This document shows positions 2,386-47,209 of a stretch of 64,000 nucleotides of DNA, piece after piece (the first letter of the stretch is position 1; each line of letters begins with the position of its first letter). The position numbers and the translations under genes are program-made. Below the pieces are notes generated by a model. It saw nothing but the letters and a program-made list of their open reading frames with translations. It was not told the DNA's origin and ran no database searches. The DNA comes from Escherichia coli (GTDB taxonomy: Bacteria; Pseudomonadota; Gammaproteobacteria; Enterobacterales; Enterobacteriaceae), in assembly GCF_011045215.1 (NCBI RefSeq), contig NZ_CP049201.1. The stretch is one strand, 5' to 3'.

Positions 2386-2454
2386 AAGGGGGTTTAGTGT
2401 GTTATTACTGGTGGATAAATTATTACTTGTTTGAAAAATACACTAATGCAATAT

Positions 2455-3888: not shown

Positions 3889-3928
3889 AGAATTTGTGGA
3901 TTGAGAGAAAATATCAGGACAAGTGCTC

Positions 3929-5119
3929 TTAACCCTGACTCTCTTGCTTAGAAAGCGAATCAATATAATCTGCGTACCACTGCATCATTTCACGGCGACC
4001 ATCGAGATACTGGGCATGATTATAGGTACCCCTGATGGCGTTTTTATCCACATGAGCTAACTGCATTTCAATCCAGGCGGAATTAAAGCCCTGTTCGTGC
4101 AGAATGGTACTCATGGTGTGTCTGAAACCGTGCCCTGTGAGTCTTCCCTTATATCCCAGTAATTCAATGACTTGGTTAATGCTTTCCTTACTAATTGGCT
4201 TGCGAGGATCGTTCCTACCGATAAAGACCAGAGGATGATGTTTTGTGATGGGTTCAAGTTGCTTAAATAGGGCAATGACCTGCTCAGAGAGCGGCACAAT
4301 ATGAGGTCGCTTCATCTTCATTACTTTTGCCGGAATCTCCCATAATTTTGTCTCAAAATCGATATCCTCCCAGCGTGCGAAACGTAATTCTTGTGTTCGT
4401 ACACCAGTTAACATAATGATCTGAGTAGCTGTCTTAGTGATGATACTTCCGGTATAACCCGCCAGATCGTTGAGGAAGTGGGGAAGTTCATTAGCAGTAA
4501 GAAAGGGAAAATGTACTTTTTTCGGTGTAGCTAAAGCACAGGCAAGATCGGGAGCAGGGTTGTAGTCTGCCCGACCAGTAACAATTGCATAGCGGAACAC
4601 TTCACCACAGCGCTGGCGGACTTTGCGCATTTTCTCCAGAGCTCCACGTTTTTCCATTTTACGCAGTGCTTCCAGTAACTCCATTGGTTTGATTTCGGCG
4701 ATAGGGCGTTTGCCAATGTAGGGAAAAATGTCTTTTTCAAAGGTATCAATGATTTCATCACGATAGCGTAATGACCACCGATCGGCTTTTGACTGATGCC
4801 ATTCGCGAGCAATGGCCTCGAACGTATTTTTCAAACTCATTTGTTGCGCGATTTTTTCTTCTTTTTTTGCCACCCCTGGATCGCCTCCAGCAGCGAGGAT
4901 TTTTCTGGCTTCGCTGCGTTTTTCACGAGCGTCGGCTAGCGTTACATCGGGGTATACGCCAATAGAAAGCATCTTTTCTTTACCAGCAAAGCGGTACTTC
5001 ATACGCCAGTATTTAGAACCATTAGTGTTAATCAGTAGATACATACCGCCGCCATCAGCAAGTTTATAGGGCTTTTCTTTTGGTTTTGCGGTTTTCACTT
5101 TAATATCGGTTAATGCCAT
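3929..5119 (-). CDS. int: P4-family tyrosine integrase (site-specific recombinase)
   Basis: 396 aa. C-terminal catalytic region with the conserved R...HxxR...Y residues (LTGHGFRHTMSTIL, IRGTYNHAQY). Same orientation as, and directly downstream of, the tRNA 3' end, the canonical layout for tRNA-targeting islands. Confidence 0.9.
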   Translation of the reverse strand: MALTDIKVKTAKPKEKPYKLADGGGMYLLINTNGSKYWRMKYRFAGKEKMLSIGVYPDVTLADAREKRSEARKILAAGGDPGVAKKEEKIAQQMSLKNTFEAIAREWHQSKADRWSLRYRDEIIDTFEKDIFPYIGKRPIAEIKPMELLEALRKMEKRGALEKMRKVRQRCGEVFRYAIVTGRADYNPAPDLACALATPKKVHFPFLTANELPHFLNDLAGYTGSIITKTATQIIMLTGVRTQELRFARWEDIDFETKLWEIPAKVMKMKRPHIVPLSEQVIALFKQLEPITKHHPLVFIGRNDPRKPISKESINQVIELLGYKGRLTGHGFRHTMSTILHEQGFNSAWIEMQLAHVDKNAIRGTYNHAQYLDGRREMMQWYADYIDSLSKQESQG

Positions 5120-5417
5120 GACATCCTCCGGCTTTTAATGAATTCATGTTCCTGAGGGGGACTTCTGCCAGTAATTAACCTGATACCCCCAATGCACCCC
5201 TTGTATAACAAAGATGTTGTTGAAAGCCGTTGTTATATATCATATTTTACCAATTATGGGGGTGCTGATATTTCAATAGGAAATAATACCCCCTAAAGTA
5301 CCCCCAAAAGCAACTTGATACGGGGTGAAGTCGGTTGACTTCTGGATACAAAGGAATCCTGATATACAAGGGATTAGAAGGGGTGGTTGACATCGGGGGA
5401 GTTCAGAAGATGTTAAT

Positions 5418-5512
5418 TGGCGGAAGATCACAGGAGTCGAACCTGCCCGGGACCGCTGGCGGCCCCAACTGGATTTGAAGTCCAGCCGCCTCACCGGAGA
5501 CGACGATCTTCC
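5418..5512 (-). tRNA. selC: tRNA-Sec (selenocysteine tRNA)
   Basis: 95-nt reverse-complement match to the E. coli selC sequence (GGAAGATCGTCGTCTCCGGTGAGGCGGCTGGACTTCAAATCCAGTTGGGGCCGCCAGCGGTCCCGGGCAGGTTCGACTCCTGTGATCTTCCGCCA) as I remember it; the 3' CCA is at 5418-5420. Confidence 0.95.
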
Positions 5513-13068: not shown

Positions 13069-14274
13069 ATGTTTCATCTCGATACTTTAGCAACGCTTGT
13101 TGCCGCAACGCTGACGTTGCTGCTCGGGCGTAAGTTGGTCCATTCCGTCTCCTTTTTGAAGAAATACACCATACCGGAACCTGTTGCGGGTGGTTTGTTG
13201 GTGGCGCTGGCGCTACTGGTACTGAAAAAAAGCATGGGCTGGGAAGTCAACTTTGATATGTCCCTGCGCGATCCGTTAATGCTGGCTTTCTTCGCCACCA
13301 TTGGCCTGAACGCCAACATTGCCAGTTTGCGTGCCGGTGGGCGTGTGGTTGGCATCTTCCTGATTGTGGTTGTTGGTCTGTTGGTGATGCAAAATGCCAT
13401 TGGCATTGGTATGGCTAGCCTGTTAGGGCTTGATCCGCTGATGGGGCTGTTGGCCGGTTCTATTACGCTTTCCGGCGGTCACGGTACGGGAGCTGCATGG
13501 AGTAAATTGTTCATTGAACGTTATGGCTTCACCAATGCGACGGAAGTGGCGATGGCCTGTGCAACGTTCGGTCTGGTGCTGGGCGGCTTGATTGGCGGTC
13601 CGGTGGCGCGCTATCTGGTGAAACACTCCACCACGCCGAACGGTATTCCGGATGACCAGGAAGTCCCGACGGCGTTTGAAAAGCCGGATGTGGGACGCAT
13701 GATCACCTCGTTGGTGCTGATTGAAACTATTGCGCTGATTGCTATCTGCCTGACGGTGGGGAAAATTGTTGCGCAACTTTTGGCTGGCACTGCTTTTGAA
13801 CTGCCGACCTTCGTCTGTGTACTGTTTGTTGGCGTGATTCTGAGCAACGGTCTGTCAATAATGGGTTTTTACCGCGTCTTTGAGCGTGCGGTATCCGTGC
13901 TGGGTAACGTAAGCTTGTCGTTGTTCCTGGCGATGGCGTTGATGGGGCTGAAACTGTGGGAGCTGGCTTCGCTGGCGCTGCCGATGCTGGCGATTCTGGT
14001 GGTACAGACCATCTTCATGGCGTTGTATGCCATCTTCGTTACCTGGCGCATGATGGGCAAAAACTACGATGCGGCAGTGCTGGCTGCGGGTCACTGTGGT
14101 TTTGGCCTCGGTGCAACGCCAACGGCAATCGCCAACATGCAGGCGATCACTGAACGTTTTGGCCCGTCGCACATGGCGTTTCTGGTGGTGCCGATGGTCG
14201 GTGCGTTCTTTATCGATATCGTCAATGCGCTGGTGATTAAGCTGTATTTGATGTTGCCGATTTTTGCGGGTTAA
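13069..14274 (+). CDS. gltS: Sodium/glutamate symporter
   Basis: 401 aa, polytopic membrane protein; length and synteny match GltS. Confidence 0.9.
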   Translation: MFHLDTLATLVAATLTLLLGRKLVHSVSFLKKYTIPEPVAGGLLVALALLVLKKSMGWEVNFDMSLRDPLMLAFFATIGLNANIASLRAGGRVVGIFLIVVVGLLVMQNAIGIGMASLLGLDPLMGLLAGSITLSGGHGTGAAWSKLFIERYGFTNATEVAMACATFGLVLGGLIGGPVARYLVKHSTTPNGIPDDQEVPTAFEKPDVGRMITSLVLIETIALIAICLTVGKIVAQLLAGTAFELPTFVCVLFVGVILSNGLSIMGFYRVFERAVSVLGNVSLSLFLAMALMGLKLWELASLALPMLAILVVQTIFMALYAIFVTWRMMGKNYDAAVLAAGHCGFGLGATPTAIANMQAITERFGPSHMAFLVVPMVGAFFIDIVNALVIKLYLMLPIFAG

Positions 14275-14449
14275 TCGATGAAGCGGCGGTAGAAGTGCCG
14301 CCGCAACAAAGACAAATGCCTGATACGCTTCGCTTATCAAGGCTGCGCATTGATTCACAATTTATTGAATTTATAAGTTTCTGTAGGACGAAGCACATCC
14401 GGCAGGAAGGTAGGGTAACCTGAAATGGCGGTCTTCTCACCGCCGCCTT

Positions 14450-26618: not shown

Positions 26619-26624
26619 AAATAT

Positions 26625-26905
26625 GCGCTGTGCAGGGTTTTTGCTGTGCACAGCGTGATGCGCTTTAAGATATCGTGTTAATCTGCTTTCGCCAGCAGTG
26701 GCAATAGCGTTTCCGGCCTTTTGTGCCGGGAGGGTCGGCGAGTCGCTGACTTAACGCCAGTAGTATGTCCATATACCCAAAGTCGCTTCATTGTACTTAA
26801 GTACGCTTCGCGTACGTCGCGCTGACGCGCTCAGTACAGTTACGCGCCTTCGGGATGGTTTAATGGTATTGCCGCTGTTGGCACCTCTTTTGGCCGCCGT
26901 GATGT
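26625..26905 (+). ncRNA. Putative retron msr/msd non-coding region (template for msDNA); boundaries approximate
   Basis: About 290 bp non-coding stretch between the pyrE stop and the RT start, with several inverted repeats (cgctgtgca...tgcacagcg at 26626-26655; ccggc...gccgg at 26713-26729; gtacttaagtac at 26793-26804). The position immediately 5' of a retron-type RT is the canonical msr-msd location. Exact a1/a2 repeats and the branching G were not resolved by eye. Confidence 0.45.
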
Positions 26906-26915
26906 GGAGAGTGGA

Positions 26916-27875
26916 ATGGATGCTACCCGGATACCCCTTCTGACGCTCGATTTGTTCGGCTCGCCGGGCTGGAGCGCCGATAAAGAAATACAGCGGCTGT
27001 ATGCGCTCAGTAATCATGCCGGACGCCATTACCGACGCATTATTCTTTCTAAACGCCACGGTGGCCAGCGGTTGGTATTAGCCCCTGATTACTTGCTCAA
27101 AACCGTACAGCGCAACATTCTTAAGAACGTCCTTTCACAATTTCCGCTTTCCCCTTTTGCTACAGCCTACCGACCAGGTTGCCCAATCGTCAGCAACGCG
27201 CAGCCACACTGCCAACAGCCGCAGATCCTGAAACTCGATATCGAAAACTTTTTCGATAGCATTAGCTGGTTACAGGTCTGGCGTGTGTTTCGCCAGGCCC
27301 AGTTGCCACGTAATGTGGTAACCATGCTGACCTGGATTTGTTGTTATAACGACGCGTTACCGCAGGGGGCACCAACTTCGCCAGCCATTTCCAATCTTGT
27401 GATGCGCTGTTTTGATGAACGCATAGGGGAATGGTGTCAGGCTCGGGGAATTACCTACACCCGCTACTGCGATGACATGACCTTTTCAGGTCACTTCAAT
27501 GCCCGCCAGGTTAAAAATAAAGTGTGCGGATTGTTAGCGGAGCTGGGCCTGAGCCTCAATCAACGCAAAAGCTGCCTGATAGCTGCCTGTAAGCGCCAGC
27601 AGGTAACCGGGATTGTTGTTAATCACAAACCACAGCTTGCCCGCGAAGCGCGCCGGGCGCTGCGTCAGGAAGTACACTTGTGCCAAAAATATGGCGTTAT
27701 TTCGCATCTTAGTCATCGTGGTGAACTTGATCCTTCTGGCGATCTCCACGCACAGGCAACGGCGTATCTTTATGCTTTGCAGGGAAGAATAAACTGGTTA
27801 TTGCAAATCAACCCTGAGGATGAGGCCTTTCAACAGGCGAGAGAGAGTGTTAAGCGAATGCTGGTTGCAGGGTAA
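26916..27875 (+). CDS. Retron-type reverse transcriptase
   Basis: 319 aa from MDATRIPLL. RT finger/palm motifs: QGAPTSPAISNLV, catalytic YCDD box (YTRYCDDMTFSG) and the retron-characteristic VTG region (RQQVTGIVVNHKP). No extra fused domains. Sits in an insertion between pyrE and slmA. Confidence 0.8.
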   Translation: MDATRIPLLTLDLFGSPGWSADKEIQRLYALSNHAGRHYRRIILSKRHGGQRLVLAPDYLLKTVQRNILKNVLSQFPLSPFATAYRPGCPIVSNAQPHCQQPQILKLDIENFFDSISWLQVWRVFRQAQLPRNVVTMLTWICCYNDALPQGAPTSPAISNLVMRCFDERIGEWCQARGITYTRYCDDMTFSGHFNARQVKNKVCGLLAELGLSLNQRKSCLIAACKRQQVTGIVVNHKPQLAREARRALRQEVHLCQKYGVISHLSHRGELDPSGDLHAQATAYLYALQGRINWLLQINPEDEAFQQARESVKRMLVAG

Positions 27876-27920
27876 GAAAAGCGTCAGGCAGACGTTTCTG
27901 CCTGACCGTTTAGGGGAGAA

Positions 27921-34471: not shown

Positions 34472-34822
34472 AGTAAATAGCTGACTTATGGATGTGCTGG
34501 GGATTCTATGTATTTAGCTGTGGCTTTACCATTACTTTTCCCGTTTTTGACTTAAATAGCAATTTACCCGCCAATTCTTGCTGAACATCTATACTTTTTT
34601 TGTATTTTTATGCGATTCATTGATTTCTGCTGTACGTGCAGGAAGGAATCGCAGAGCAACAGTGAAAGAATATGGTTGCTAATGATTATATTTGATTGAT
34701 TTCTTTATTGAAAATCAACAATGTGCTTAAAAATCATTCGGGTCGGATTGCCGCGAAAGAAGTGATACACTAGCGCGTCAATATCAGTGCGGTATCAGTA
34801 TTCAGGTAGCTGTTGAGCCTGG

Positions 34823-34834
34823 GGCGGTAGCGTG
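34823..34834 (+). promoter_or_regulatory. ops element (RfaH-dependent antitermination signal) in the JUMPstart region upstream of waaQ
   Basis: GGCGGTAGCGTG in the 5' leader of the waaQ operon. Confidence 0.7.
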
Positions 34835-34883
34835 CTTTTTCTGCTTCACCTTAATCGGATAATCTCAACAAAAAGAGTTACTT

Positions 34884-35942
34884 GTGGATAAGCCATTTCG
34901 AAGAATTTTGCTCATTAAGATGCGTTTTCATGGGGATATGTTATTAACTACTCCCGTCATTAGTTCGCTGAAAAAAAATTACCCTGACGCAAAAATCGAT
35001 GTGCTGCTTTATCAGGACACCATCCCGATCCTGTCTGAAAATCCAGAGATTAACGCGCTCTACGGCATAAAAAATAAAAAAGCAAAAGCCTCAGAAAAAA
35101 TTGCCAACTTTTTTCATCTCATCAAGGTATTACGTGCCAATAAGTATGACCTTATCGTCAATCTTACCGATCAATGGATGGTTGCTATACTGGTTCGCTT
35201 ATTAAATGCCCGTGTGAAAATTTCCCAGGATTATCATCATCGGCAGTCTGCTTTTTGGCGTAAAAGTTTCACCCATTTGGTGCCGTTGCAGGGTGGAAAT
35301 GTGGTGGAAAGTAACTTATCCGTGCTGACACCATTGGGACTTGATTCGTTGGTGAAGCAGACAACCATGAGTTACCCGCCTGCAAGCTGGAAACGTATGC
35401 GTCGCGAACTTGATCACGCTGGTGTTGGACAAAATTATGTGGTTATCCAACCTACGGCGCGGCAAATCTTCAAATGCTGGGACAACGCCAAGTTTTCCGC
35501 TGTGATTGATGCCTTACATGCTCGTGGTTATGAAGTCGTTCTGACGTCCGGCCCAGATAAAGACGATCTGGCCTGCGTCAATGAAATTGCGCAGGGATGC
35601 CAGACGCCACCAGTAACGGCGCTGGCTGGAAAGGTGACCTTCCCGGAACTTGGTGCGTTAATCGATCATGCGCAGCTGTTTATTGGCGTTGATTCCGCAC
35701 CGGCGCATATTGCCGCTGCAGTTAATACGCCGCTGATATCGCTGTTTGGTGCGACAGACCATATTTTCTGGCGTCCCTGGTCAAATAACATGATTCAATT
35801 CTGGGCGGGAGATTACCGGGAAATGCCAACGCGCGATCAGCGTGACCGAAATGAGATGTATCTTTCGGTTATTCCGGCGGCAGATGTCTTTGCTGCTGTC
35901 GATAAATTACTGCCCTCCTCCACGACAGGTACGTCGTTATGA
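34884..35942 (+). CDS. waaQ: LPS heptosyltransferase III
   Basis: GT9 heptosyltransferase; first gene of the long waa operon. The start is uncertain (GTG at 34884 or a downstream codon). Confidence 0.85.
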   Translation: MDKPFRRILLIKMRFHGDMLLTTPVISSLKKNYPDAKIDVLLYQDTIPILSENPEINALYGIKNKKAKASEKIANFFHLIKVLRANKYDLIVNLTDQWMVAILVRLLNARVKISQDYHHRQSAFWRKSFTHLVPLQGGNVVESNLSVLTPLGLDSLVKQTTMSYPPASWKRMRRELDHAGVGQNYVVIQPTARQIFKCWDNAKFSAVIDALHARGYEVVLTSGPDKDDLACVNEIAQGCQTPPVTALAGKVTFPELGALIDHAQLFIGVDSAPAHIAAAVNTPLISLFGATDHIFWRPWSNNMIQFWAGDYREMPTRDQRDRNEMYLSVIPAADVFAAVDKLLPSSTTGTSL

Positions 35943-37063
35943 TCGTTGCTTTTTGTTTATATAAATATTTTCCCTTTGGCGGTTTGCAGCGCGATTTTAT
36001 GCGTATTGCTCAGACAGTCGCCGCCCGAGGTCATCATGTTCGGGTTTATACCCAGTCGTGGGAAGGCGAATGCCCTGATGTATTTGAACTGATCAAAGTG
36101 CCGGTTAAATCGCATACCAATCACGGGCGCAATGCGGAGTATTTTGCCTGGGTGCAAAAACATTTACGCGAACATCCCGTCGATAAAGTCGTTGGATTCA
36201 ACAAAATGCCGGGGCTGGACGTTTATTATGCCGCTGATGTTTGTTATGCCGAGAAAGTAGCGCAGGAAAAAGGCTTTTTCTATCGCCTGACGTCACGTTA
36301 TCGCCATTATGCCGCCTTTGAGCGGGCAACCTTCGAACAGGGCAAGCCGACACAGCTGCTAATGCTGACAGATAAGCAAATCGCCGATTTCCAGAAACAT
36401 TATCAGACTGAAGCGGAGCGTTTTCATATTCTGCCACCGGGGATTTATCCTGATCGTAAATATAGCCAGCAGCCAGCTAATAGCCGTGAAATCTTCCGTA
36501 AGAAGAATGGAATAACCGAACAACAATATTTATTGTTGCAGGTCGGTTCAGACTTCACGCGTAAAGGTGTCGATCGTTCCATTGAAGCACTTGCTTCGTT
36601 ACCGGATTCGCTGCGCCACAACACATTGCTATATGTTGTTGGGCAGGATAAACCGCGAAAATTTGAGGCGCTGGCAGAAAAACGCGGCGTGCGCAGTAAT
36701 GTTCACTTCTTCTCGGGGCGCAACGATGTCTCGGAATTAATGGCGGCGGCGGATTTATTACTGCATCCTGCCTACCAGGAAGCGGCGGGAATTGTGCTGC
36801 TGGAAGCGATTACTGCAGGATTACCGGTACTAACAACAGCCGTTTGTGGCTATGCGCATTATATTGTCGAGGCCAATTGCGGCGAGGCTATTGTTGAGCC
36901 ATTCCGCCAGGAAACATTGAATGAGATTTTACGCAAAGCGTTAACGCAATCTTCATTGCGCCAGGCCTGGTCGGAAAATGCGCGACATTATGCTGATACA
37001 CAAGATTTATACAGTCTGCCAGAGAAAGCGGCGGATATCATAACGGGTGGTCTGGATGGTTGA
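35939..37063 (+). CDS. waaG: LPS core glucosyltransferase I (GT4)
   Basis: 374 aa; overlaps the waaQ stop by 4 nt (ATGA). Confidence 0.9.
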
Positions 37064-37853
37064 ACTTAAAGAGCCGTTTGCCACGTTATGGCGCGGTAAA
37101 GATCCTTTTGAGGAAGTTAAAACCTTGCAGGGTGAGGTATTTCGTGAACTGGAAACTCGCCGTACTCTGCGCTTTGAAATGGCGGGCAAAAGCTATTTTC
37201 TCAAATGGCATCGCGGCACGACCCTGAAAGAGATAATCAAAAATTTACTCTCATTGCGGATGCCAGTATTAGGCGCAGACCGCGAATGGAATGCGATTCA
37301 TCGACTGCGGGATGTCGGCGTTGATACTATGTATGGGGTGGCATTTGGCGAAAAAGGCATGAATCCGCTGACCAGAACTTCATTTATTATTACCGAAGAT
37401 CTGACACCAACCATAAGTCTGGAAGATTACTGTGCTGACTGGGCGACTAACCCTCCAGATGTTCGCGTAAAGCGTATGCTTATTAAGCGTGTCGCGACGA
37501 TGGTGCGCGATATGCATGCTGCGGGCATTAACCACCGTGACTGTTATATCTGTCATTTCCTGCTGCACTTGCCTTTTTCCGGTAAGGAAGAGGAGTTAAA
37601 AATTTCGGTAATTGACCTGCACCGGGCGCAGCTTCGCACGCGCGTTCCACGTCGTTGGCGCGATAAAGATCTTATTGGGCTTTATTTTTCTTCGATGAAT
37701 ATCGGCCTGACTCAGCGGGATATCTGGCGGTTTATGAAAGTGTATTTTGCCGCCCCGCTTAAAGACATTCTCAAGCAGGAACAAGGACTGCTGTCGCAAG
37801 CAGAAGCAAAAGCCACAAAAATCAGGGAAAGAACGATTCGAAAATCGTTGTAA
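37056..37853 (+). CDS. waaP: LPS core heptose(I) kinase
   Basis: 265 aa from [14 protein letters not shown]; kinase-like region [17 protein letters not shown]. Confidence 0.85.
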
Positions 37854-37895
37854 CCCGTAACTTATTTTTGCCAAAATTTTGGATACAGAATAAAT

Positions 37896-38903
37896 ATGTC
37901 TCAACTCAATGATAGTGACATCATCCTTTTTGAGTATAATTTTCATTATCAAAATATAAGATCTAAAAATACTCTTGATATAGCATTTGGTATTGACAGA
38001 AATTTTCTTTTTGGATGTGGTGTAGCCATCGCATCTATTCTATTAAACAATAGAGAAATCTCTTGTGAATTTCATGTTTTCACAGATTATATCAGTGATA
38101 AAGACAAGTTATATTTTTCCGATTTAGCAAAACAATATAATTCAAGAATTAATATTTATGTTATCAATTGTGATAAGCTGAAGTCATTACCAAGCACGAA
38201 AAACTGGACTTACGCTACATATTTTCGATTTATAATTGCAGACTATTTCTATAATAAACATGAAAAAATACTATATCTTGATGCAGATATTGCTTGCAAG
38301 GGTAGTATTAAAGAACTCTTAGATTATCAATTCTCTACTAATGAAATTGCCGCAGTTGTAGCTGAAAGAGATGTTGAATGGTGGCAGAATCGAGCCTCGG
38401 TATTAACTACACCACAATTAGCTTCTGGATATTTCAATGCTGGTTTTTTACTGATAAATATTGATGAGTGGAATCTTAATAACATTTCGTCAAAAGCTAT
38501 TGAAATGTTGCGTGATCCAGATTGGGTAAGTAAAATCACCCACCTTGATCAAGATGTACTGAATGTATTATTGAATGGTAAAGTGAAGTTTATTTCTGGG
38601 AAATATAATACCCGATATAGTATTAACTATGAATTAAAAGACAAAGTTGATAATCCAGTCAATGATGACACTGTGTTTATACACTATGTGGGACCTACAA
38701 AACCCTGGCATGAATGGGCTGACTATCCGGTGTCACGTAGTTTTTTGATCGCCAAAGCATCTTCTCCGTGGTGTAAAGAAGATTTACTTAAACCTGTAAA
38801 TAGCAATCAGTATCGGTATTGTGCAAAACATAAATTTAAACAAAAGCATTATATGGCGGGCATTTTTAATTATTTAAAGTATTATAAAGAAAAATGCTTT
38901 TAA
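37896..38903 (+). CDS. waaI: GT8-family LPS outer-core glycosyltransferase (position matches waaI of the R3 core type)
   Basis: 335 aa; GT8 hallmarks (LYLDADI DxD motif, HYxGxxKPW). Symbol assigned from gene order only. AT-rich. Confidence 0.5.
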   Translation: MSQLNDSDIILFEYNFHYQNIRSKNTLDIAFGIDRNFLFGCGVAIASILLNNREISCEFHVFTDYISDKDKLYFSDLAKQYNSRINIYVINCDKLKSLPSTKNWTYATYFRFIIADYFYNKHEKILYLDADIACKGSIKELLDYQFSTNEIAAVVAERDVEWWQNRASVLTTPQLASGYFNAGFLLINIDEWNLNNISSKAIEMLRDPDWVSKITHLDQDVLNVLLNGKVKFISGKYNTRYSINYELKDKVDNPVNDDTVFIHYVGPTKPWHEWADYPVSRSFLIAKASSPWCKEDLLKPVNSNQYRYCAKHKFKQKHYMAGIFNYLKYYKEKCF

Positions 38904-38928
38904 AGATTTAAGGTTAAAATAATTCAAT

Positions 38929-39636
38929 ATGATATATAATAAAACGATAAATGGGTTGAAAGTTTTCATAAAAGATAATGATCCCTTTTATGAGCAAGTT
39001 CTGAATGACTTTTTAACTTGCAGGGTTAAAACATTAAAAGTTTTTCGTTCTATTGATGATACTAAAGTTATTCTTATTGACACTGCTCGTGGACCTCTTG
39101 TACTTAAAGTTTATGCGCCAAAGCATAAAATGATCGAACGTTTCTTAAAATCTTGCATAAAAAAAGATTATTATGAAAATTTAATTTATCAAACCGATCG
39201 GGTACGTGGTGAAGGCATTCAATCAATTAATGACTATTTTTTGCTTGCTGAACGTAAAACATTAAATTTCGCGCATTATTATATTATGCTCATTGAGTAT
39301 ATTGAAGGTGTCGGGTTAAATGAGTATTTGGAAATTTCTGAAGAACTGAAGGATCAATTATCAGAATCGATAAAAGAGTTGCATCAGCATGGAATGGTGT
39401 CTGGCGATCCTCATAAAGGAAATTTTATAGTATCCGAAAAAGGTTTAAGACTAATTGACCTTTCAGGTAAAAAAACAACCGCAGTTTTAAAAGCAAAAGA
39501 TCGCATTGATCTTGAACGGCACTATAATATAAAAAATGAATTGAAAGACTTTGGCTATACATATCTTATATTCAAAAAGAAAATTAAAAAAGCAATCAGG
39601 GATGTAAAAGTCAAACTAGGTTTGAAGAGCAAATAA
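38929..39636 (+). CDS. waaY: LPS core heptose(II) kinase
   Basis: 235 aa, WaaP/WaaY-like small kinase, placed between the two GT8 genes. AT-rich. Confidence 0.6.
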   Translation: MIYNKTINGLKVFIKDNDPFYEQVLNDFLTCRVKTLKVFRSIDDTKVILIDTARGPLVLKVYAPKHKMIERFLKSCIKKDYYENLIYQTDRVRGEGIQSINDYFLLAERKTLNFAHYYIMLIEYIEGVGLNEYLEISEELKDQLSESIKELHQHGMVSGDPHKGNFIVSEKGLRLIDLSGKKTTAVLKAKDRIDLERHYNIKNELKDFGYTYLIFKKKIKKAIRDVKVKLGLKSK

Positions 39637-39660
39637 TGATTATGATGAAGGGTAATTAAA

Positions 39661-40674
39661 TTGGATTTTAAACATCTTACTCAATTTAAAGATATAATTG
39701 AACTGGACAAGCGCCCCGTTAAACTTGATGAACGGGAAACGTTTAATGTCTCATGGGGTATTGATGAGAACTACCAGGTTGGGGCTGCGATTTCAATTGC
39801 TTCAATTCTTGAAAATAATAAACAAAACAAATTTACCTTTCACATAATCGCTGATTACTTAGACAAAGATTATATTGAATTATTATCACAATTAGCAACG
39901 AAGTATCAAACAGTAATTAAATTATATCATATTGATTCTGAGCCATTGAAGACGCTACCTCAATCAAATATCTGGCCAGTATCTATTTATTATCGTTTGC
40001 TTTCATTTGACTATTTTTCTGCGCGATTGGATTCATTATTATATCTTGATGCTGATATCGTCTGTAAGGGTTCATTGAACGAGTTAATAGCATTAGAGTT
40101 TAAAGATGAATATGGGGCTGTGGTAATTGATGTAGATGCTATGCAAAGTAAAAGCGCTGAGCGTTTAGGTAATGAGGATTTTAACGGTAGCTATTTTAAC
40201 TCTGGTGTAATGTATATTAATTTACGGGAATGGTTAAAACAAAGACTAACGGAGAAATTCTTTGATCTATTATCAGATGAGTCAATTATCAAAAAATTAA
40301 AATATCCGGATCAAGATATTTTAAACTTAATGTTTCTACATCATGCTAAAATATTACCGAGAAAATATAACTGTATTTATACTATAAAGTCAGAATTTGA
40401 AGAAAAAAATAGTGAATATTACACCCGGTTTATTAATGATGAAACTGTCTTCATACATTATACTGGTGTAACTAAGCCATGGCATGATTGGGCGAACTAC
40501 GCATCTGCAGATTATTTTCGTAATATTTATAATATATCACCATGGAGAAATATACCTTATAAAAAAGCTGTTAAAAAACATGAGTACAAAGAAAAATATA
40601 AACACTTGCTTTACCAGAAAAAATTTCTCGATGGTTTTTTTACAGCAATTAAATATAATTTTATGAAAGGTTAA
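39661..40674 (+). CDS. waaJ: GT8-family LPS outer-core glycosyltransferase (position matches waaJ of the R3 type)
   Basis: 337 aa; GT8 hallmarks (LYLDADI, HYTGVTKPW). Appears to use a TTG start at 39661 because in-frame stops lie immediately upstream. Symbol from gene order only. Confidence 0.5.
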   Translation: MDFKHLTQFKDIIELDKRPVKLDERETFNVSWGIDENYQVGAAISIASILENNKQNKFTFHIIADYLDKDYIELLSQLATKYQTVIKLYHIDSEPLKTLPQSNIWPVSIYYRLLSFDYFSARLDSLLYLDADIVCKGSLNELIALEFKDEYGAVVIDVDAMQSKSAERLGNEDFNGSYFNSGVMYINLREWLKQRLTEKFFDLLSDESIIKKLKYPDQDILNLMFLHHAKILPRKYNCIYTIKSEFEEKNSEYYTRFINDETVFIHYTGVTKPWHDWANYASADYFRNIYNISPWRNIPYKKAVKKHEYKEKYKHLLYQKKFLDGFFTAIKYNFMKG

Positions 40675-40682
40675 CATTCGAG

Positions 40683-41825
40683 ATGGTTGATAAAATAATA
40701 TTTACAGTTACTCCTATTTTTTCAATTCCTCCTCGCGGAGCGGCCGCTGTTGAAACGTGGATGTATCAGGTCGCTCAGCGTACCAATTTCCCAAATCGTA
40801 TTGTTTGTATCAAGAATCCAGGATACTCAAATTACACCTTTGTTAATGATAATTGTAGTATTCATAGGGTTGGATTCAGTCGCATATATAAGCGGTTATT
40901 TCAAAAATGGACAAGACTTGATCCTCTTCCATATTCACAGAGAATATTGAATATTGCACATGATTTTCCTATAACGAAAGAAAGTGTTATTGTAGTTCAT
41001 AATAGTATGAAGCTATACACTCAAATTCGTAAGCGAGCTCCTCAGGCAAGAGTGGTTATACATATGCATAATGCATTTGAACCAAAATTGCTTGAGCAAA
41101 ATGTTAAAATGATAGTGCCTAGTTTATACTTGAAAAAGTATTACCAATCTTATTTAGCAAATGCAGATATTGAGATTGTACCAAATGGAATTGATTTAGA
41201 AACCTATCAATCTACTTTTCAGCCGATCACTAGAAGCGAACTTAATATCTCCCCTGAAGAGAAAATTATTTTTTATGCTGGGCGTATCGTCCCTGACAAA
41301 GGCATATTGCTGTTGATGCAATCATTCGAAAAATTGGCCGCTGCTCACAAAAATTTAAAATTAGTTGTGATTGGTGATTATACAGAAATGAGTAAAAGTG
41401 ACAAAGGTGCATATCAACGCAATGTCAGGGAAATTGCAAAACGTTTGAAGGATCGTTGCATTATGTTAGGAAGCATACCGCCTGAAAAGATGCATTGTTA
41501 TTACCCACTGGCAGATTTAGTCGTCATTCCTTCCCAGTTCCAGGAACCATTTTGCATGGTGGCAATTGAAGCTATGGGGGCTGGTAAGCCTGTTTTAGTG
41601 AGTACGCGTGGGGGGATGACGGAATTTGTCAAAGAAAATACTACGGGATTCCATTTAAAAGAACCTATGACTGCAGACTCCATAAGCAGCGATATTTTAA
41701 AAACGTTAGCGAATCCTGAATTAACAGCAGTTGCAAAGCAAGGTCAGGATTTTGTGTTTGATCACTACAGTTGGGATGGCGTAACTCAAAGATTCGAAGA
41801 GGTTATTCATAATTGGTTTGAATAA
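40683..41825 (+). CDS. waaD: GT4-family glycosyltransferase, last gene of the waaQ operon (position matches waaD of the R3 type)
   Basis: 380 aa; GT4 EX7E-type region (IPSQFQEPFCMVAIEAMGAGKPVLVSTRGGMTEFV). Followed by a hairpin with T-run (aaaaaggccgcattatgcagccttttttatttttt). Confidence 0.45.
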   Translation: MVDKIIFTVTPIFSIPPRGAAAVETWMYQVAQRTNFPNRIVCIKNPGYSNYTFVNDNCSIHRVGFSRIYKRLFQKWTRLDPLPYSQRILNIAHDFPITKESVIVVHNSMKLYTQIRKRAPQARVVIHMHNAFEPKLLEQNVKMIVPSLYLKKYYQSYLANADIEIVPNGIDLETYQSTFQPITRSELNISPEEKIIFYAGRIVPDKGILLLMQSFEKLAAAHKNLKLVVIGDYTEMSKSDKGAYQRNVREIAKRLKDRCIMLGSIPPEKMHCYYPLADLVVIPSQFQEPFCMVAIEAMGAGKPVLVSTRGGMTEFVKENTTGFHLKEPMTADSISSDILKTLANPELTAVAKQGQDFVFDHYSWDGVTQRFEEVIHNWFE

Positions 41826-41860
41826 ATAAAAAGGCCGCATTATGCAGCCTTTTTTATTTT

Positions 41861-43069
41861 TTACTTGTTTTTCATCGCTAATAATAAGCCGGCGTAAACG
41901 CCTAATAAATTTGGTTCAATTTGTTCTACGTTTCCACGGATAACAAAATAACCTATAAAAGATAGTAAGATTATATAATATGCATTATATGGTGAGCGGT
42001 ATATATTCTGGACGCCATTTTTTATACACTCTTTCAATATTGCACAGTATAGCATCATAAGACTTACCAGCCCTAATAAACCAGTGCCAAACCAGATGAA
42101 TAGCGCAAAATTATGTGGCCCTATTGATTGTCTAAAGGTCCATTCTGGATAATCAACGACACGTTTATTATAGACATCTTTATATGCAAAGTTACCGTAA
42201 CCATAACCAATAACAGGATTTTCTAATATTAGATCGAGTGCGCTGCCTTGAGTACCATTTGCATAGCGATAAGAACTATTAGTTTGTTGAAGTTTATACG
42301 TTAGCTTTGCGGTCATCTCCTTATGTGTGAAAATAACCGACAATGCAATGATGGAAACCATTACTCCTACTAATAGTAACTTCCATTGTTTAAACATCAG
42401 AATCCATATTAATCCAATGACTAACACGGAAAGCCAGGCCCCTCTGGATAAAGTTCCTAATATCAGAAAAATAAAAATAAAGCTTAGAACCACAAAAGAA
42501 ATGCGGTATTTTGCTGATTTAATAAGCCAGAGATTTAACAATGCAGGGAATAAAAAGACCATCGAGTCAGAAATGCTACGGTGTCTATAATCTGCGAATG
42601 GCATTATCCCTTGTTGATAGTCCTTATAATAGGCAATCAATTCAGAAAAACAGCGTAAGCTCAACGCACTAATAAATGAGAAGAAAACGATTTTTTCGAT
42701 ATCTTCTCTTTTTTCGTCTCTCAATATGACCGGTATTGCTATTGTGCATAGTAAAGTATTCTCAATGATAGCTTTGAAAATTTCCTTCATGCTAGCACCT
42801 GCATCTGGAGATTGAAGAAGTGACAGCAATGCAGCAATAGTTAATATGGCAACACTACCAAAAAGAAATGTTTTAAATAGTGATAGATAGTGTTTTGGCC
42901 GTTTGCAGAGATAGACGATTGTCGTTATTGTCATAAGAATAACAATAAGATGTTTATACCTTGTAATCCCACCCAAAAAATAGGTGGTAATAAATAAGAA
43001 TACGAGAGCTCTGTTCCAGTACGCTATCCAGTTTTTTTTCTCGAGAGAGAAAAATAATGTTGAGGTCAT
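41861..43069 (-). CDS. waaL: O-antigen ligase
   Basis: 402 aa, very hydrophobic polytopic protein; position immediately downstream of waaC in the hldD-waaF-waaC-waaL operon. AT-rich. Confidence 0.7.
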   Translation of the reverse strand: MTSTLFFSLEKKNWIAYWNRALVFLFITTYFLGGITRYKHLIVILMTITTIVYLCKRPKHYLSLFKTFLFGSVAILTIAALLSLLQSPDAGASMKEIFKAIIENTLLCTIAIPVILRDEKREDIEKIVFFSFISALSLRCFSELIAYYKDYQQGIMPFADYRHRSISDSMVFLFPALLNLWLIKSAKYRISFVVLSFIFIFLILGTLSRGAWLSVLVIGLIWILMFKQWKLLLVGVMVSIIALSVIFTHKEMTAKLTYKLQQTNSSYRYANGTQGSALDLILENPVIGYGYGNFAYKDVYNKRVVDYPEWTFRQSIGPHNFALFIWFGTGLLGLVSLMMLYCAILKECIKNGVQNIYRSPYNAYYIILLSFIGYFVIRGNVEQIEPNLLGVYAGLLLAMKNK

Positions 43070-44058
43070 CTTATCTCCGATGTCAACTTATTGATTATTA
43101 TTTCAAGATTTAAATTTTGAAAAACGGTTTGAGCTGGCAAATCTGCAAGAGACATACTTGTAGAACGACACTCTACTTGATTCTTCCCATACCCGCCAAT
43201 TAATCCCGGATCGGTTGGTCCATAAACCGTGATATTGGGTCTATCCAGTGCCGCCGTTAAATGGCTTAACCCCGTATCCACCGACACTACAAATTTAGCC
43301 CCGGCCAGCACGCGGGCAACGCCTTCCAGACTCATCTTCGGTAATACTTCAACATAAGCAAATCCTTCCGCCAGTCGTTTCGCCCGTTCTTCCTCATGCG
43401 GCGCGCCCCACGGAAGTTTAATCCGTATTCCTGAATCAGCCAGTAAACCAATCAATTCTCGCCAGTGTTCTTCCGGCCAGTGTTTATCATCACGGGTCGT
43501 CGCATGAAGAAATACGGCATATTCGCCAGCATCTGTAGGCAGATTCGTCAGGAAATGCTGTGCAATAGCATAATCGCCCTGGGTTTGCGGTTTGCTATAG
43601 CCCAGACTTTTGGCAAACAGTTCGCGGGTGCGTTCTACGGCGTGCTGCTGTTTTGCAATATGATGCTTACGATTGTAAAACAGACTGGCTAAAGGTTCGC
43701 GAGCGGTTTTCCAGTCCATGCCATGCTTTACGCCATGCGCCAGACGCGTCACCAGCGCCGCGCTTTTTACCAGCCCCTGAGCGTCGATAACTGCGTCATA
43801 GTTCTCTGCTTGTAGCGCTTCACGAAACGCTTTGCGTTCCGCTTTTATGGGGGCCGAGAACCAGGCTTTACGCCAGCGACGTATTGCCACAGGAATAACT
43901 CGCTCAACGGCAGCGTGCCAGGAAGGAATCTGTGCGAACCCTTCTTCCACCACCCAGTCAAACTTAATCCCTGGGATTGCCTGCTGGGCATCAGTGAGTG
44001 CGGGCAACGTATGGAGAACATCGCCCATCGACGATGTTTTAACGATCAAAACCCGCAT
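43066..44058 (-). CDS. waaC: LPS heptosyltransferase I
   Basis: 330 aa from MRVLIVKTSSMGDVLHTLPALTDAQQAIPGIKFDWVVEEGFAQIP. Confidence 0.9.
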   Translation of the reverse strand: MRVLIVKTSSMGDVLHTLPALTDAQQAIPGIKFDWVVEEGFAQIPSWHAAVERVIPVAIRRWRKAWFSAPIKAERKAFREALQAENYDAVIDAQGLVKSAALVTRLAHGVKHGMDWKTAREPLASLFYNRKHHIAKQQHAVERTRELFAKSLGYSKPQTQGDYAIAQHFLTNLPTDAGEYAVFLHATTRDDKHWPEEHWRELIGLLADSGIRIKLPWGAPHEEERAKRLAEGFAYVEVLPKMSLEGVARVLAGAKFVVSVDTGLSHLTAALDRPNITVYGPTDPGLIGGYGKNQVECRSTSMSLADLPAQTVFQNLNLEIIINKLTSEIR

Positions 44059-44061: not shown

Positions 44062-45108
44062 TCAGGCTTCCTCTTGTAACAATAGCGCGTTGAGTTCTTC
44101 CAGTACGCGCTGGGGAGTAATGTCGATTAAGCTCTGGTGATAACCCTCCGCAGCGTCACCTTTACGCACTTTGTGATAGCCGGTAATCAAACGGATCACG
44201 CGCGCTTTATGGGATAGCGGCGGTGTGAAGTCCGGGCTACTCGGACCATACAGGGCAACCAGCGGACGATTGAGCGCCGCCGCAACATGCATCAGGCCAG
44301 AATCGTTAGTGACAATGGCTTTACAGGCTGCAATCAGGATAACCGCTTGATCAAGCTGTGTTTCCCCCGCCAGGTTCCGACACCATGCCTGCTGCTCGGT
44401 ATTCAAAGCGGCAAGAATCTCATTGCCCGCTTCATGATCTTTCGCCGAGCCAAACAGAACCACCTGATAACCTTCATCAATCAGCTGCTTTGCCAGCTCC
44501 GCATAGTGGTAGTGTGGCCAGCGTTTTGCCGGACCAAACTCCGCACCCGGGCAAAAACCAATCATCGGACGTTCTGATGAAAGCGAAAATTGATTACAGG
44601 TATATGATTTTTCACCTTCGCTCACCTGCAACTGCGGCCATAACAATGGCTGCGGCAGATCTTGTGCTGTGCGCATAATGCCTTTGTCATAGGCCAGCGC
44701 TATATAGCGTTCCACCATTAGCGGCCAGGCTTCTTTATCGAGCACGCGTACATCGTTGAGTAAACCGTAGCGCATCTCGCCGCGCCAGCCGGTGCGATGA
44801 GGAATACCCGCGAAGAAAGGCACTAATGCAGATTTGAAGGAGTTGGGTAAGACGTAGGCGCGGTCGTAGCGCTTTTCACGCAGGCTATGACCCAGTTTGC
44901 GGCGTTCGCCGATTTCCAGCGCTCCGTGACCGAGAGGCATAGGAATAGCTTCGTTAACTTCCGGCATCCGCGATAATAATGGACGGCACCATGCCGGTGC
45001 CATCACATCGATTATCGCCTGGGGATAGCGCGCCTGGAGCGTGCGATAGAGACTTTGCGACATCATCATGTCGCCAACCCAAGACGGGCCGATCACCAGT
45101 ATTTTCAT
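44062..45108 (-). CDS. waaF: LPS heptosyltransferase II
   Basis: 348 aa from MKILVIGPSWVGDMMMSQSLYRTLQARYPQAIIDVMAPAWCRPLLSRMPEV. Confidence 0.95.
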   Translation of the reverse strand: MKILVIGPSWVGDMMMSQSLYRTLQARYPQAIIDVMAPAWCRPLLSRMPEVNEAIPMPLGHGALEIGERRKLGHSLREKRYDRAYVLPNSFKSALVPFFAGIPHRTGWRGEMRYGLLNDVRVLDKEAWPLMVERYIALAYDKGIMRTAQDLPQPLLWPQLQVSEGEKSYTCNQFSLSSERPMIGFCPGAEFGPAKRWPHYHYAELAKQLIDEGYQVVLFGSAKDHEAGNEILAALNTEQQAWCRNLAGETQLDQAVILIAACKAIVTNDSGLMHVAAALNRPLVALYGPSSPDFTPPLSHKARVIRLITGYHKVRKGDAAEGYHQSLIDITPQRVLEELNALLLQEEA

Positions 45109-45117
45109 GCAGAGCTC

Positions 45118-46050
45118 TTATGCGTCGCGATTCAGCCAGGCCATGTATTCCGTTACACCTTCAGCAACGGTTTTGAACGGTTTGTCGTAACCCGCCGCGC
45201 GCAGATTTGTCAGATCTGCCTGAGTGAACGCCTGGTAGCGGCCTTTCAGCTTATCCGGGAACGGAATGTATTCGATCTGGCCTTTCTTGTGATAAGCCAG
45301 CGTAGCATCAGCTACAGCCTGGAAGGATTCCGCACGACCGGTGCCGAGGTTGAAGATGCCGGAAACGCCATTTTCCAGGAACCACAGGTTTACATCTGCC
45401 ACGTCGCCCACATAGACGAAGTCACGTTTGAAGTTCTCGCTACCTTCGAACAGTTTTGGCGATTCACCGTTGTTAAGCTGGGTGTTGAGATGGAAAGCGA
45501 CGCTCGCCATGCTGCCTTTATGGCCTTCACGCGGTCCATAAACGTTGAAATAACGGAAGCCAACAATCTGCGAGTTCGCTTCAGGCAGGATTTGACGAAC
45601 ATATTCATCAAACAGGAATTTTGAGTAACCGTAGACGTTCAACGGTTTTTCGTACTCGCGGGATTCAATAAAGTCGGAGGTGCGTCCGCCGTAAGTGGCC
45701 GCGGAAGATGCATACAGGAACGGGATTTCGCGCTCCATACAGTAGTGCAGCAGCTCTTTGGAATATTGATAGTTGTTATCCATCATATACTTGCCATCCC
45801 ACTCGGTGGTGGAAGAGCATGCGCCTTCGTGGAAAATCGCTTCGACATCGCCGAACTCTTCGCCAGCCATAATCTGGATCAGGAAGTCTTCCTTATCCAT
45901 ATAGTCCGCGATATCCAGATCCACCAGGTTCACAAACTTGGTGCCGTCTTTCAGGTTGTCCACCACCAGAATATCGGTGATGCCTTTATCATTCAGGGCC
46001 TTAACGATGTTGCTGCCGATAAAGCCCGCGCCGCCGGTAACGATGATCAT
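45118..46050 (-). CDS. hldD: ADP-L-glycero-D-manno-heptose-6-epimerase
   Basis: 310 aa from [33 protein letters not shown] (Rossmann GxGxxG). Confidence 0.95.
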
Positions 46051-46351
46051 AACTGTAACCTTCGAATTATGGAGTCAGAGACAATCTCAGACATGAATGT
46101 CTGTAATCATACCATCACATCCGAATCCCTTCAGCCCTTTACATAGAGATGCAAGAATGCTAATTGCAACAAACTAGTTTGGGTTTTAGCTAGTCCTTCA
46201 TGGCGGATGTTGGTTTTGCACGTGAATAGTGCTTTAGTATCAATATTCCGATGTATGGTAAATAACGGAAGCATTTGAATGGATAATATACAGTATACAT
46301 TCTGTTAATATTTATGATATAATTCTTTTTATATTAATGGTCTTATTAGTA

Positions 46352-47209
46352 ATGAAATCATCCACCACAATTATCACTGCATATTTTGACATTGGTAGAG
46401 GGGATTGGACTGCTAATAAAGGGTTCCGTGAAAAACTAGCTCGTTCAGTTGATGTTTATTTTAGTTACTTTGAGCGTCTGGCCGTACTTGAAAATGAGAT
46501 GATTATTTTCACTTCTCCCGATTTGAAACCAAGGGTTGAAGCGATTCGCAACGGAAAACCAACAACGGTTATCGCTATCGATATAAAAAAGAAATTTAGA
46601 CATATCAGAAGTCGTATCGAAAAAATTCAAAAAGATGAGTCGTTTACAAATAGACTTGAGCCTCGACAATTAAAAAACCCAGAGTACTGGTCACCAGAGT
46701 ATGTTTTGGTATGTAACCTTAAGGCCTATTTTGTAAATAAAGCTATCAACATGGGCTTAGTGAAAACGCCTCTTGTTGCGTGGATAGATTTTGGCTATTG
46801 CCGTAAGCCAAATGTGACTCGAGGATTGAAAATTTGGGATTTCCCATTTGATGAAAATAAGATGCATCTTTTCACTATAAAAAAAGGGCTTACTGTTACA
46901 TCTCAACAACAGGCTTTTGATTTCATGATTGGCAATCATGTATATATTATTGGGGGCGCAATTGTTGGTTCACAGCATAAATGGAAAGAATTCTATAAAT
47001 TAGTTCTGGAAAGTCAAAAAATAACACTAAACAATAACATTGTGGACGATGACCAGGGCATTTTTGTCATGTGCTATTACAAACGTTCCGATCTCTTCAA
47101 CCTAAACTATCTGGGGAGAGGAAAATGGTTCGATTTGTTTCGCTGCTTCAGGAGTAACACTTTAGGGGCAAAAATGCAGGCGCTGAGAATTTTCCTTTCA
47201 AGAAAATAG
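46352..47209 (+). CDS. htrL: HtrL/YibB-family protein
   Basis: 285 aa from MKSSTTIITAYFDIGRGDWTANKGFREKLARSVDVYFSYFERL; AT-rich; synteny. Confidence 0.8.
   Translation: MKSSTTIITAYFDIGRGDWTANKGFREKLARSVDVYFSYFERLAVLENEMIIFTSPDLKPRVEAIRNGKPTTVIAIDIKKKFRHIRSRIEKIQKDESFTNRLEPRQLKNPEYWSPEYVLVCNLKAYFVNKAINMGLVKTPLVAWIDFGYCRKPNVTRGLKIWDFPFDENKMHLFTIKKGLTVTSQQQAFDFMIGNHVYIIGGAIVGSQHKWKEFYKLVLESQKITLNNNIVDDDQGIFVMCYYKRSDLFNLNYLGRGKWFDLFRCFRSNTLGAKMQALRIFLSRK

Follow-up and report, generated by a model that had tools for sequence, protein, structure and literature searches.

Genes and elements of the locus

Within the window (the whole stretch of Escherichia coli DNA that was analysed, 64,000 nucleotides in length), waaQ, waaG and waaP are followed on the + strand by genes for a GT8 glycosyltransferase, a kinase, a further GT8 enzyme and a GT4 enzyme, and waaL follows waaC on the - strand (Table 1). 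This gene order had been read from the letters in the initial annotation and is borne out by open reading frames and Pfam matches, which run along the block as GT8 with GT8C, WaaY, GT8 with GT8C, GT4 (Glycos_transf_1) and Wzy_C. NCBIfam models above their curated cut-offs supply the names RfaQ, RfaP, 3-alpha-galactosyltransferase, RfaY, RfaL, RfaC and RfaF. Through the JUMPstart element in the waaQ leader the antiterminator RfaH is brought to the long waaQ operon, and the sequence of the element is kept in the alignment of all core types. The start codon of waaJ is preceded by a ribosome-binding site, GAAGGG, and the hairpin between the convergent waaD and waaL is, as predicted from its sequence, probably a terminator acting in both directions.

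Table 1. Position, strand and supporting evidence of features at the waa locus, numbered from the first base of the window.
Feature	Position	Strand	Evidence
JUMPstart RNA element with ops site, waaQ leader	34796..34834	+	Rfam RF01707, 55.2 bits (gathering score 35), E=1.5e-10
waaQ, heptosyltransferase III, R1/R3/R4 lineage allele	34884..35942	+	NCBIfam PRK10422, 711 bits
waaG, GT4 glucosyltransferase I (first outer-core glucose)	35939..37063	+	annotated waaG in O157
waaP, heptose(I) kinase	37056..37853	+	NCBIfam PRK15123, 482 bits
R3-specific low-G+C cassette (33.1% G+C)	37854..43177		composition and homology edges
waaI (RefSeq name waaO), GT8 UDP-galactose:(glucosyl)LPS alpha-1,3-galactosyltransferase	37896..38903	+	Pfam GT8 and GT8C; NCBIfam PRK15171, 616 bits (cut-off 461)
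waaY, heptose(II) kinase, R3 allele	38929..39636	+	Pfam WaaY, 310 bits; NCBIfam PRK10359, 387 bits
waaJ, GT8, adds third hexose	39661..40674	+	Pfam GT8 and GT8C; 98% identical in protein to its O157 counterpart, which is annotated with this activity
waaD, GT4, terminal side-branch sugar on third hexose	40683..41825	+	Pfam Glycos_transf_1; NCBIfam PRK15484 subfamily, 769 bits
12-bp hairpin with A run and T run at its sides, between convergent waaD and waaL	41828..41854		terminator scan and sequence reading
waaL, O-antigen ligase, R3 allele	41861..43069	-	NCBIfam PRK15487, 684 bits; Pfam Wzy_C
waaC, heptosyltransferase I	43066..44058	-	NCBIfam PRK10964, 634 bits
type-specific waaC 3' end, codons 295-330 and stop, 112 nt, 33% G+C	43066..43177	-	alignments, composition
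conserved waaC part, codons 1-294, 52% G+C, right homology arm	43178..44058	-	waaC alignments
waaF and hldD (rfaD), conserved start of hldD-waaF-waaC-waaL operon	44062..46050	-	NCBIfam PRK10916, 752 bits

Assignment to the R3 core type

The locus was compared with one annotated representative of each other core type (K-12 MG1655, R1 E. coli B, R2 M505 and R4 Z1323CEC0009) and, for R3, with E. coli O157:H7, an experimentally characterised R3 strain, the prototype strain being F653. O157 has been linked to the R3 core type before (PMC13293308, PMC8715443). In BLASTP searches the five variable proteins (WaaI, WaaY, WaaJ, WaaD and WaaL) were 98-100% identical to their O157:H7 counterparts, whereas identity to any protein of K-12, R1, R2 or R4 did not exceed 58%. 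WaaI and WaaY are each 99% identical to their O157 counterparts, with WaaY at 52-58% to the other types; WaaD is identical to O157 (100%) and 57% identical to WaaK of R2; and WaaL, at 98% to O157 and 52% to R2, found no BLASTP match in the WaaL of K-12, R1 or R4. The five reading frames are intact, with the O157:H7 lengths of 335, 235, 337, 380 and 402 aa and full-length alignments, and the locus as a whole is colinear with that of O157:H7 strain 493/89, at a DNA identity of 98.1-99.7% per gene. Both the gene content and order of the R3 genotype (waaQ-G-P-I-Y-J-D on one strand, waaL after waaC on the other) and its type-specific protein identity to R3-typed strains are thus found here. Judged on one representative each, the K-12, R1, R2 and R4 types were ruled out by their gene content and by protein identities of no more than 58%.

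Published primers gave the same answer. Those of the R3 typing PCR, which spans waaJ and waaD, have exact sites in silico at 39745-39767 and 40746-40765 (R3-F, in waaD), giving the published product of 1,021 bp, and the seven primers for R1, R2, R4 and K-12 from the same source (PMC13293308) have no site in the window within 3 mismatches. Homology arms designed on F653 (PMC9927288) fall where the gene ends are expected: the waaI, waaG and waaD oligonucleotides have 0-2 mismatches, the arm downstream of waaJ has 4, and the arm upstream of waaJ has at most 4, of which up to 3 lie in three vector priming-site bases of the query. Primer arms for S. flexneri 2457T (PMC3184986) also fall at the expected gene ends.

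Of 5,426 complete E. coli genomes, 1,363 carry the cassette at an identity of at least 95%. The allele in the window is reached at 99% or more in only 14 of those 1,363, the nearest complete genome being that of the bovine strain XJ34 (99.6%).

The proposal of an R3-like core therefore passed every sequence test run, from gene order and protein identity to typing primers and primer arms, and no sequence evidence contradicting it was found in the locus. We conclude that the 34.5-46 kb region is almost certainly an intact R3-type waa (LPS core oligosaccharide) locus. The R3 locus is already known, and this is a correct annotation with no new biology: the same version is found in O157:H7 and in roughly one in four sequenced E. 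coli, making this an ordinary locus, correctly recognised.

Base composition and edges of the cassette

A marked AT-richness of the block had been noted by eye, and a sliding-window G+C profile upheld it, with values of 0.29-0.36 in every 500-nt window from 37.75 to 43.2 kb against 0.47-0.55 on either side. Taken whole, the block has a G+C of 0.331, compared with a mean of 0.515 (sd 0.028, minimum 0.42) in 481 other windows of equal (5.3-kb) length, which is far beyond chance. The limits first given for it, 37,896-43,069, needed moving outward: by composition and homology the edges lie at 37,854, the first base after the waaP TAA stop, where homology to R1 and R4 ceases, and at 43,177, inside waaC.

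The composition is deviant and the edges are sharp, but integrase, IS, direct repeats and tRNA were not found at them. Only waa genes lie within 34.5-46 kb, with no integrase, IS or phage gene among them, and the sole tRNA of the 64-kb window is at 5418-5512. Edges of this kind fit exchange by homologous recombination, and the cassette is therefore not classed as a mobile island, a reading that we rejected. Published work describes all five waa loci as low in G+C in their variable middle and as exchanged by homologous recombination (PMC8715443).

The waaC tail and the junction with waaL

The initial annotation had suspected, with low confidence, that the last 40 or so residues of WaaC differ from K-12 and that a recombination junction lies within the 3' end of waaC. 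Aligning waaC ends across core types supported the junction, which we place at nt 881/882, where identity to K-12 falls from ~99% to ~50% within a few bases. The difference in the protein is also real, though it covers 36 residues (295-330): residues 1-294 are near-identical to K-12, and divergence begins at 295. WaaC is 330 aa long in R3, 319 in K-12, 326 in R1 and 319 in R4, and in every core type its last 25-36 codons are type-specific. The R3 sequence splits off from all the others at nt 882, and divergence among the remaining four sets in near nt 900. Real crossovers must sit deeper in the conserved flank.

Upstream of the break, waaC nt 1-860 carries 7-34 mismatches to every core type, and the window has 7 differences from K-12 there and 12 from O157. 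On the left, waaP matches the R4 representative with 0 mismatches in 798 nt and differs from O157 at 6 sites. Judged by these alignments, the flanks track the strain and not the core type.

The waaL start codon overlaps the waaC stop by 4 nt (ATGA), and the waaL ribosome-binding site, GGAG, sits in the type-specific tail of waaC. It is unlikely, in our view, that the WaaC tails are each co-adapted with their cassettes rather than being passive hitch-hikers; in R3, for example, the link would be this ribosome-binding site and the coupled ATGA. For the structure of the WaaC tail, a single-sequence AlphaFold model had a mean pLDDT of 37, too low to use, and the solved WaaC structures 2GT1, 2H1H and 6DFE are of a 326-aa chain, the R1-type length, and so do not bear directly on the R3 tail. 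No explicit description of the waaC boundary was found in the literature searched, the older key papers being outside its range.

Alternative explanations

Another way to view the locus is as a hybrid or new core type, in which an R3-like gene order would carry enzymes that build a different outer core. Hybrid waa loci, R2/K-12 and R1/R4, have recently been described in E. coli (PMC13293308), the allele in the window falls in the minority sequence group of 14 genomes described above, and the WaaJ of XJ34 is named by RefSeq only 'glycosyltransferase family 8 protein'. However, each gene is 98.1-99.2% identical to O157, the differences being evenly spread and no segment mosaic, genes of other core types are absent from the locus, and the five variable proteins agree with O157 in both length and sequence, making a hybrid highly improbable. 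It is likewise highly improbable that the break in waaC records a recent, strain-specific recombination in the source genome, as the wording of the initial annotation suggests. The abrupt loss of identity to K-12 is what would speak for such an event, but the same R3 tail is joined to R3 waaL in exactly 1,363 genomes, a number equal to that of the R3 block carriers, the other ~4,060 genomes all cease to match at window positions 43,175-43,178, and the boundary in O157:H7 is identical. Since the boundary is common to all 1,363 R3 genomes, it is a fixed cassette edge, not a strain-specific event.

The low G+C might instead come from coding needs of membrane proteins and glycosyltransferases, or from local drift, and not from a separate origin. 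WaaL belongs to the integral membrane proteins, whose genes often use AT-rich codons, and no homologous region has been reported outside Escherichia and Shigella (PMC8715443). Against this, G+C at third codon positions, which are largely unconstrained by the protein, is 0.24-0.33 in the block and 0.46-0.63 in the flanking genes; WaaG and WaaQ share folds with the cassette enzymes and yet are encoded at 47-48% G+C; and the composition step coincides with the homology edges to the base, with G+C dropping from 52% to 33% even in the 112-nt tail of waaC. We consequently regard coding needs or drift as a very unlikely source of the composition.

Proposed working of the locus

The biochemical roles that we assign follow publications on the genes of O157:H7 and F653, which are near-identical to those here. 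In this scheme WaaG would place the first glucose onto heptose II, WaaI would then add an alpha-1,3 galactose, WaaJ an alpha-1,2 glucose, and WaaD a terminal side-branch glucose on the WaaJ-added residue. WaaP and WaaY would phosphorylate heptose I and heptose II, respectively, and WaaQ would add heptose III, after which the R3-specific ligase WaaL would join O-antigen to the finished core. Kaniuk et al. (2004) reportedly found that the WaaJ-added glucose is also the site of O-antigen attachment, and that the R3 core of O157:H7 also needs two unlinked genes, for WabB (carried on pO157) and a GlcNAc transferase, both outside the window. On the steps within the locus, PMC9927288, citing Kaniuk 2004, has WaaI adding galactose at the second hexose position and describes WaaD as a glucosyltransferase; PMC3184986 disagrees with the latter role, as does the database name of WaaD, 'N-acetylglucosaminyltransferase'.

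The + strand genes form one long operon, led by the JUMPstart/ops element, and waaL is translated from the convergent hldD-waaF-waaC-waaL operon, from a start codon that shares bases with the stop of waaC. The type-specific cassette is the AT-rich stretch of 5.3 kb (37,854-43,177), one of five alternatives in the species. Strains exchange these cassettes through homologous recombination in the conserved flanks, formed by waaP or waaA on the left side and by nt 1-881 of waaC on the right.

The practical significance of the core type is that it sets the phages, bacteriocins and antibodies by which a rough or semi-rough strain is recognised, as well as the O-antigen ligase that the strain has. 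A statistical association links R3 with LEE-positive and Shiga-toxin-producing lineages (PMC8715443, PMC13293308). The added value of the present analysis is small, being a base-exact map of the cassette edges that includes the type-specific WaaC tail, and this map could aid the design of typing assays or allelic-exchange constructs.

Comparison with other core types

The gene order first given for K-12, waaQGPSBOJYZU, agrees with the MG1655 annotation. The waaQ operon of K-12 and R2 comprises ten genes, among them waaS or another GT8 gene, waaB, waaZ, and waaU or waaK, and in both types waaL comes after waaC in the hldD operon, as in the window. The position of waaL beside waaC, which had been offered as a mark of R3, is indeed present but is shared by these two types, and excludes only R1 and R4. 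Nor is the variable part of the locus confined to the outer-core and ligase genes, as had been supposed: against K-12 the waaQGP genes are also ~25% diverged in DNA, and the AT-rich block was accordingly rejected as the whole of the variable region with K-12 as reference. The waaQGP genes of K-12 and R2 have ~75% DNA identity to the window, with divergence beginning in the waaA-waaQ spacer near 34,560; in protein, WaaQ is 73% and WaaG 88-90% identical to these two types. The nearest relatives of WaaD and WaaL outside R3 are in R2, namely its WaaK and its WaaL, respectively.

The R1 and R4 loci share waaQ-waaG-waaP with the window at 99-100% protein identity (WaaQ 99-100% and WaaG 99%, as to O157), together with the conserved part of waaC, waaF and hldD; the products of the last two are 99-100% identical in all core types. 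Their outer-core genes differ, being waaO-T-Y-W-V in R1 and waaO-T-Y-W-X in R4, and their waaL closes the waaQ operon, sharing the strand of waaQ, whereas in the window it is on the opposite strand; similarity between their ligase and that of R3 is not detectable.

The E. coli O157:H7 R3 locus is attributed to Kaniuk et al. (2004, J Biol Chem 279:31237) in PMC9927288 and PMC3184986. With R3 as represented by F653 and O157:H7, the window has in common the genes, their order and orientation, the waaC tail and the waaC/waaL overlap, and the common O157:H7 allele stands ~1.5% apart from the window allele in nucleotides, with no structural difference between the two.

Gene content and base composition

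A complete waa (LPS core) locus of E. coli occupies 34.5-46 kb of the window, and its genes have intact reading frames. Pfam assignments for the genes after waaP and for waaL agree exactly with the families named in the initial annotation (GT8, kinase, GT8, GT4 and ligase). The AT-rich block that it described is real: all 500-nt windows between 37.75 and 43.2 kb have a G+C content of 0.29-0.36, against 0.47-0.55 on both flanks, and the block overall stands at 0.331, compared with 481 other windows of equal length (mean 0.515, sd 0.028, minimum 0.42). At third codon positions, G+C amounts to 0.24-0.33 inside the block and 0.46-0.63 in the genes flanking it. A second AT-rich gene, htrL/yibB (46337-47209, 0.37 G+C), adjoins the locus. 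The window shares it with O157:H7 and K-12; the R1 (E. coli B), R4 and R2 representatives lack it and have kbl immediately after hldD.

Features of the waa locus and of the selC island in the window
Feature	Position	Strand	Evidence or location
waaQ	34884-35942	+	NCBIfam RfaQ, above curated cut-off
waaG	35939-37063	+	
waaP	37056-37853	+	NCBIfam RfaP, above curated cut-off
WaaI gene	37896-38903	+	Pfam GT8 and GT8C; NCBIfam 3-alpha-galactosyltransferase, above curated cut-off
WaaY gene	38929-39636	+	Pfam WaaY kinase; NCBIfam RfaY, above curated cut-off
WaaJ gene	39661-40674	+	Pfam GT8 and GT8C
WaaD gene	40683-41825	+	Pfam GT4
waaL	41861-43069	-	Pfam Wzy_C; NCBIfam RfaL, above curated cut-off
waaC	43066-44058	-	NCBIfam RfaC, above curated cut-off
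waaF	44062-45108	-	NCBIfam RfaF, above curated cut-off
hldD	45118-46050	-	
JUMPstart element	34796-34834		waaQ leader; Rfam RF01707, 55 bits
12-bp hairpin	41828-41854		Between convergent waaD and waaL
P4-type integrase	3929-5119	-	selC island
TPR protein	2455-3498	-	selC island
Phosphoethanolamine-transferase-like protein	704-2308	+	selC island; below every curated cut-off

The block carries an R3 genotype

A full-length megablast search with the 5.2-kb block at a minimum identity of 95% found it in 1,363 of 5,426 complete E. coli genomes, always on the chromosome. Many of these are O157:H7 strains (98.5% identity), and the closest match is the bovine strain XJ34 (99.6%). Sequence sub-groups exist within the R3 block: at least 99% identity to the window is reached by only 14 genomes, and among the R3-block genomes listed most, O157:H7 included, lie at about 98.5%, with at least one at 96.5%.

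The window locus is colinear with that of O157:H7 strain 493/89, at 98.1-99.7% identity per gene, with differences evenly distributed along its length. WaaI, WaaY, WaaJ, WaaD and WaaL are 98-100% identical to their O157:H7 counterparts and at most 58% identical to any protein of the annotated other-type representatives, namely K-12 MG1655, E. coli B (R1, its waaT disrupted by IS1), one R4 strain carrying the GT25 gene waaX, one R2 strain carrying waaK, and strain S3, whose outer core is K-12-like. WaaL gave no BLASTP match in the K-12, R1 and R4 representatives. In silico, the published R3 typing primers have exact sites at 39745-39767 and 40746-40765, with a product of 1,021 bp as published, and none of the seven R1, R2, R4 and K-12 primers finds a site in the window, even when 3 mismatches are allowed (PMC13293308). 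Recombineering arms based on the R3 prototype F653 fall at the expected gene ends; its waaI, waaG and waaD oligonucleotides show 0-2 mismatches, against 4 in the waaJ-down arm and at most 4 in the waaJ-up arm, of which up to 3 lie inside three vector-primer bases of the query (PMC9927288). Those based on Shigella flexneri 2457T likewise lie at the gene ends where they are expected, and show 0-1 mismatches (PMC3184986).

Because of the identity to O157:H7, the low identity to other types, the primer and arm matches, and the published tie of O157 to the R3 core (PMC13293308, PMC8715443), we regard the R3 genotype as established within the limits of sequence evidence, as the initial annotation had proposed. 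Its observation that waaL lies beside waaC also holds, but this arrangement does not distinguish R3 from K-12 or R2.

Edges of the cassette

Compared with R1 and R4, the window is identical up to and including the waaP stop codon (0 mismatches in 798 nt of waaP against the R4 representative), and identity is lost at the next base, 37,854. Compared with K-12 and R2, divergence sets in far earlier, within the waaA-waaQ spacer at about 34,560, and the waaQGP region has only about 75% DNA identity. The window's waaQGP lineage occurs at 95% identity or more in 4,469 genomes of the collection, and the K-12/R2 lineage, at about 75%, in 956 further genomes. The AT-rich block is therefore the R3-specific portion, and the variable part exceeds it. 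The outer-core block was thus rightly picked out as R3-specific, but against K-12 waaQGP is variable as well.

The spacer itself (34472-34883) is a mosaic, in which all core types conserve the first ~120 nt beside waaA as well as the JUMPstart region, and the intervening stretch of the R1/R3/R4 lineage is unlike that of K-12/R2. The K-12 annotation lists the waaQ leader as the small RNA RirA. Strain S3 combines a K-12-type outer core with waaQ-waaG of the R1/R3/R4 lineage, the changeover falling within waaP at about nt 600-690 (13586-14383 in S3 against 37056-37853 in the window); the left breakpoint of cassette exchange is therefore not always the same.

The right edge had been placed, as a low-confidence guess, in the 3' end of waaC, and alignment across types agrees. 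Up to nt 881 (codon 294, ...GKNQ), waaC is near-identical in the window, in O157 and in K-12; identity beyond it is ~50%, and G+C drops at this point from 0.52 to 0.33. Since WaaC has 330 residues in the window (319 in K-12), residues 295-330, 36 in all, are type-specific. Every core type has its own waaC tail; R3 splits from the others at nt 882, and K-12, R1, R2 and R4 split from one another near nt 900. A 451-nt junction probe aligns over its whole length in exactly 1,363 genomes, the number carrying the R3 block, and in all remaining genomes the match begins only at window position 43,175-43,178. The boundary therefore belongs to the cassette as a fixed feature and did not arise recently in this strain.

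Predicted expression and core assembly

According to two papers on near-identical genes (PMC9927288, PMC3184986, citing Kaniuk 2004), the second hexose position receives its galactose through WaaI, WaaJ adds glucose as the third hexose, and WaaD places a terminal substituent on the WaaJ glucose. The JUMPstart element would recruit RfaH and thereby let RNA polymerase traverse the long AT-rich operon, and the hairpin would terminate both convergent operons. The waaC tail contains the waaL ribosome-binding site GGAG, the waaC stop codon overlaps the waaL ATG (ATGA), and waaL may be translationally coupled to waaC. Kaniuk 2004 reportedly identified the WaaJ glucose as the O-antigen attachment site and WaaD as a glucosyltransferase, although databases name it a GlcNAc transferase; it also reportedly describes modification of the O157 core by wabB, an unlinked gene.

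Other loci in the window

Relative to XJ34, a 1.3-kb insertion (26620-27919) lies between pyrE and slmA, a position that matches the one described for retron Ec107. Its single ORF (26904-27875, + strand, 323 aa) scores as a retron-type reverse transcriptase, with 229 bits for the NCBIfam retron St85 family, slightly below the cut-off of 235. The same insertion occurs in 381 of the 5,426 genomes, and 26620-27919 matched no Rfam RNA family. An island at 1-5512 adjoins tRNA-Sec (selC, 5418-5512, - strand), and its gene content is unlike that of the selC island in XJ34.

Relation to known core loci

With the AT-rich block confirmed, our sequence comparisons support its R3 interpretation, the tentative waaC point included. 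The R3 locus is already known and belongs to textbook E. coli LPS genetics, and just the base-exact, species-wide waaC boundary adds a modestly new detail. The flanks track strain and not core type: waaP, identical to that of the R4 strain, has 6 differing sites against O157, and nt 1-860 of waaC has 7 against K-12 and 12 against O157. ORF, annotation and tRNA scans of the window found no IS, integrase or tRNA at the cassette edges. The low-G+C middle of waa, the ultimate origin of which is not established, is exchanged between strains via homologous recombination in the conserved flanks (PMC8715443). Flanks that follow the strain, and edges free of such elements, fit this published view.
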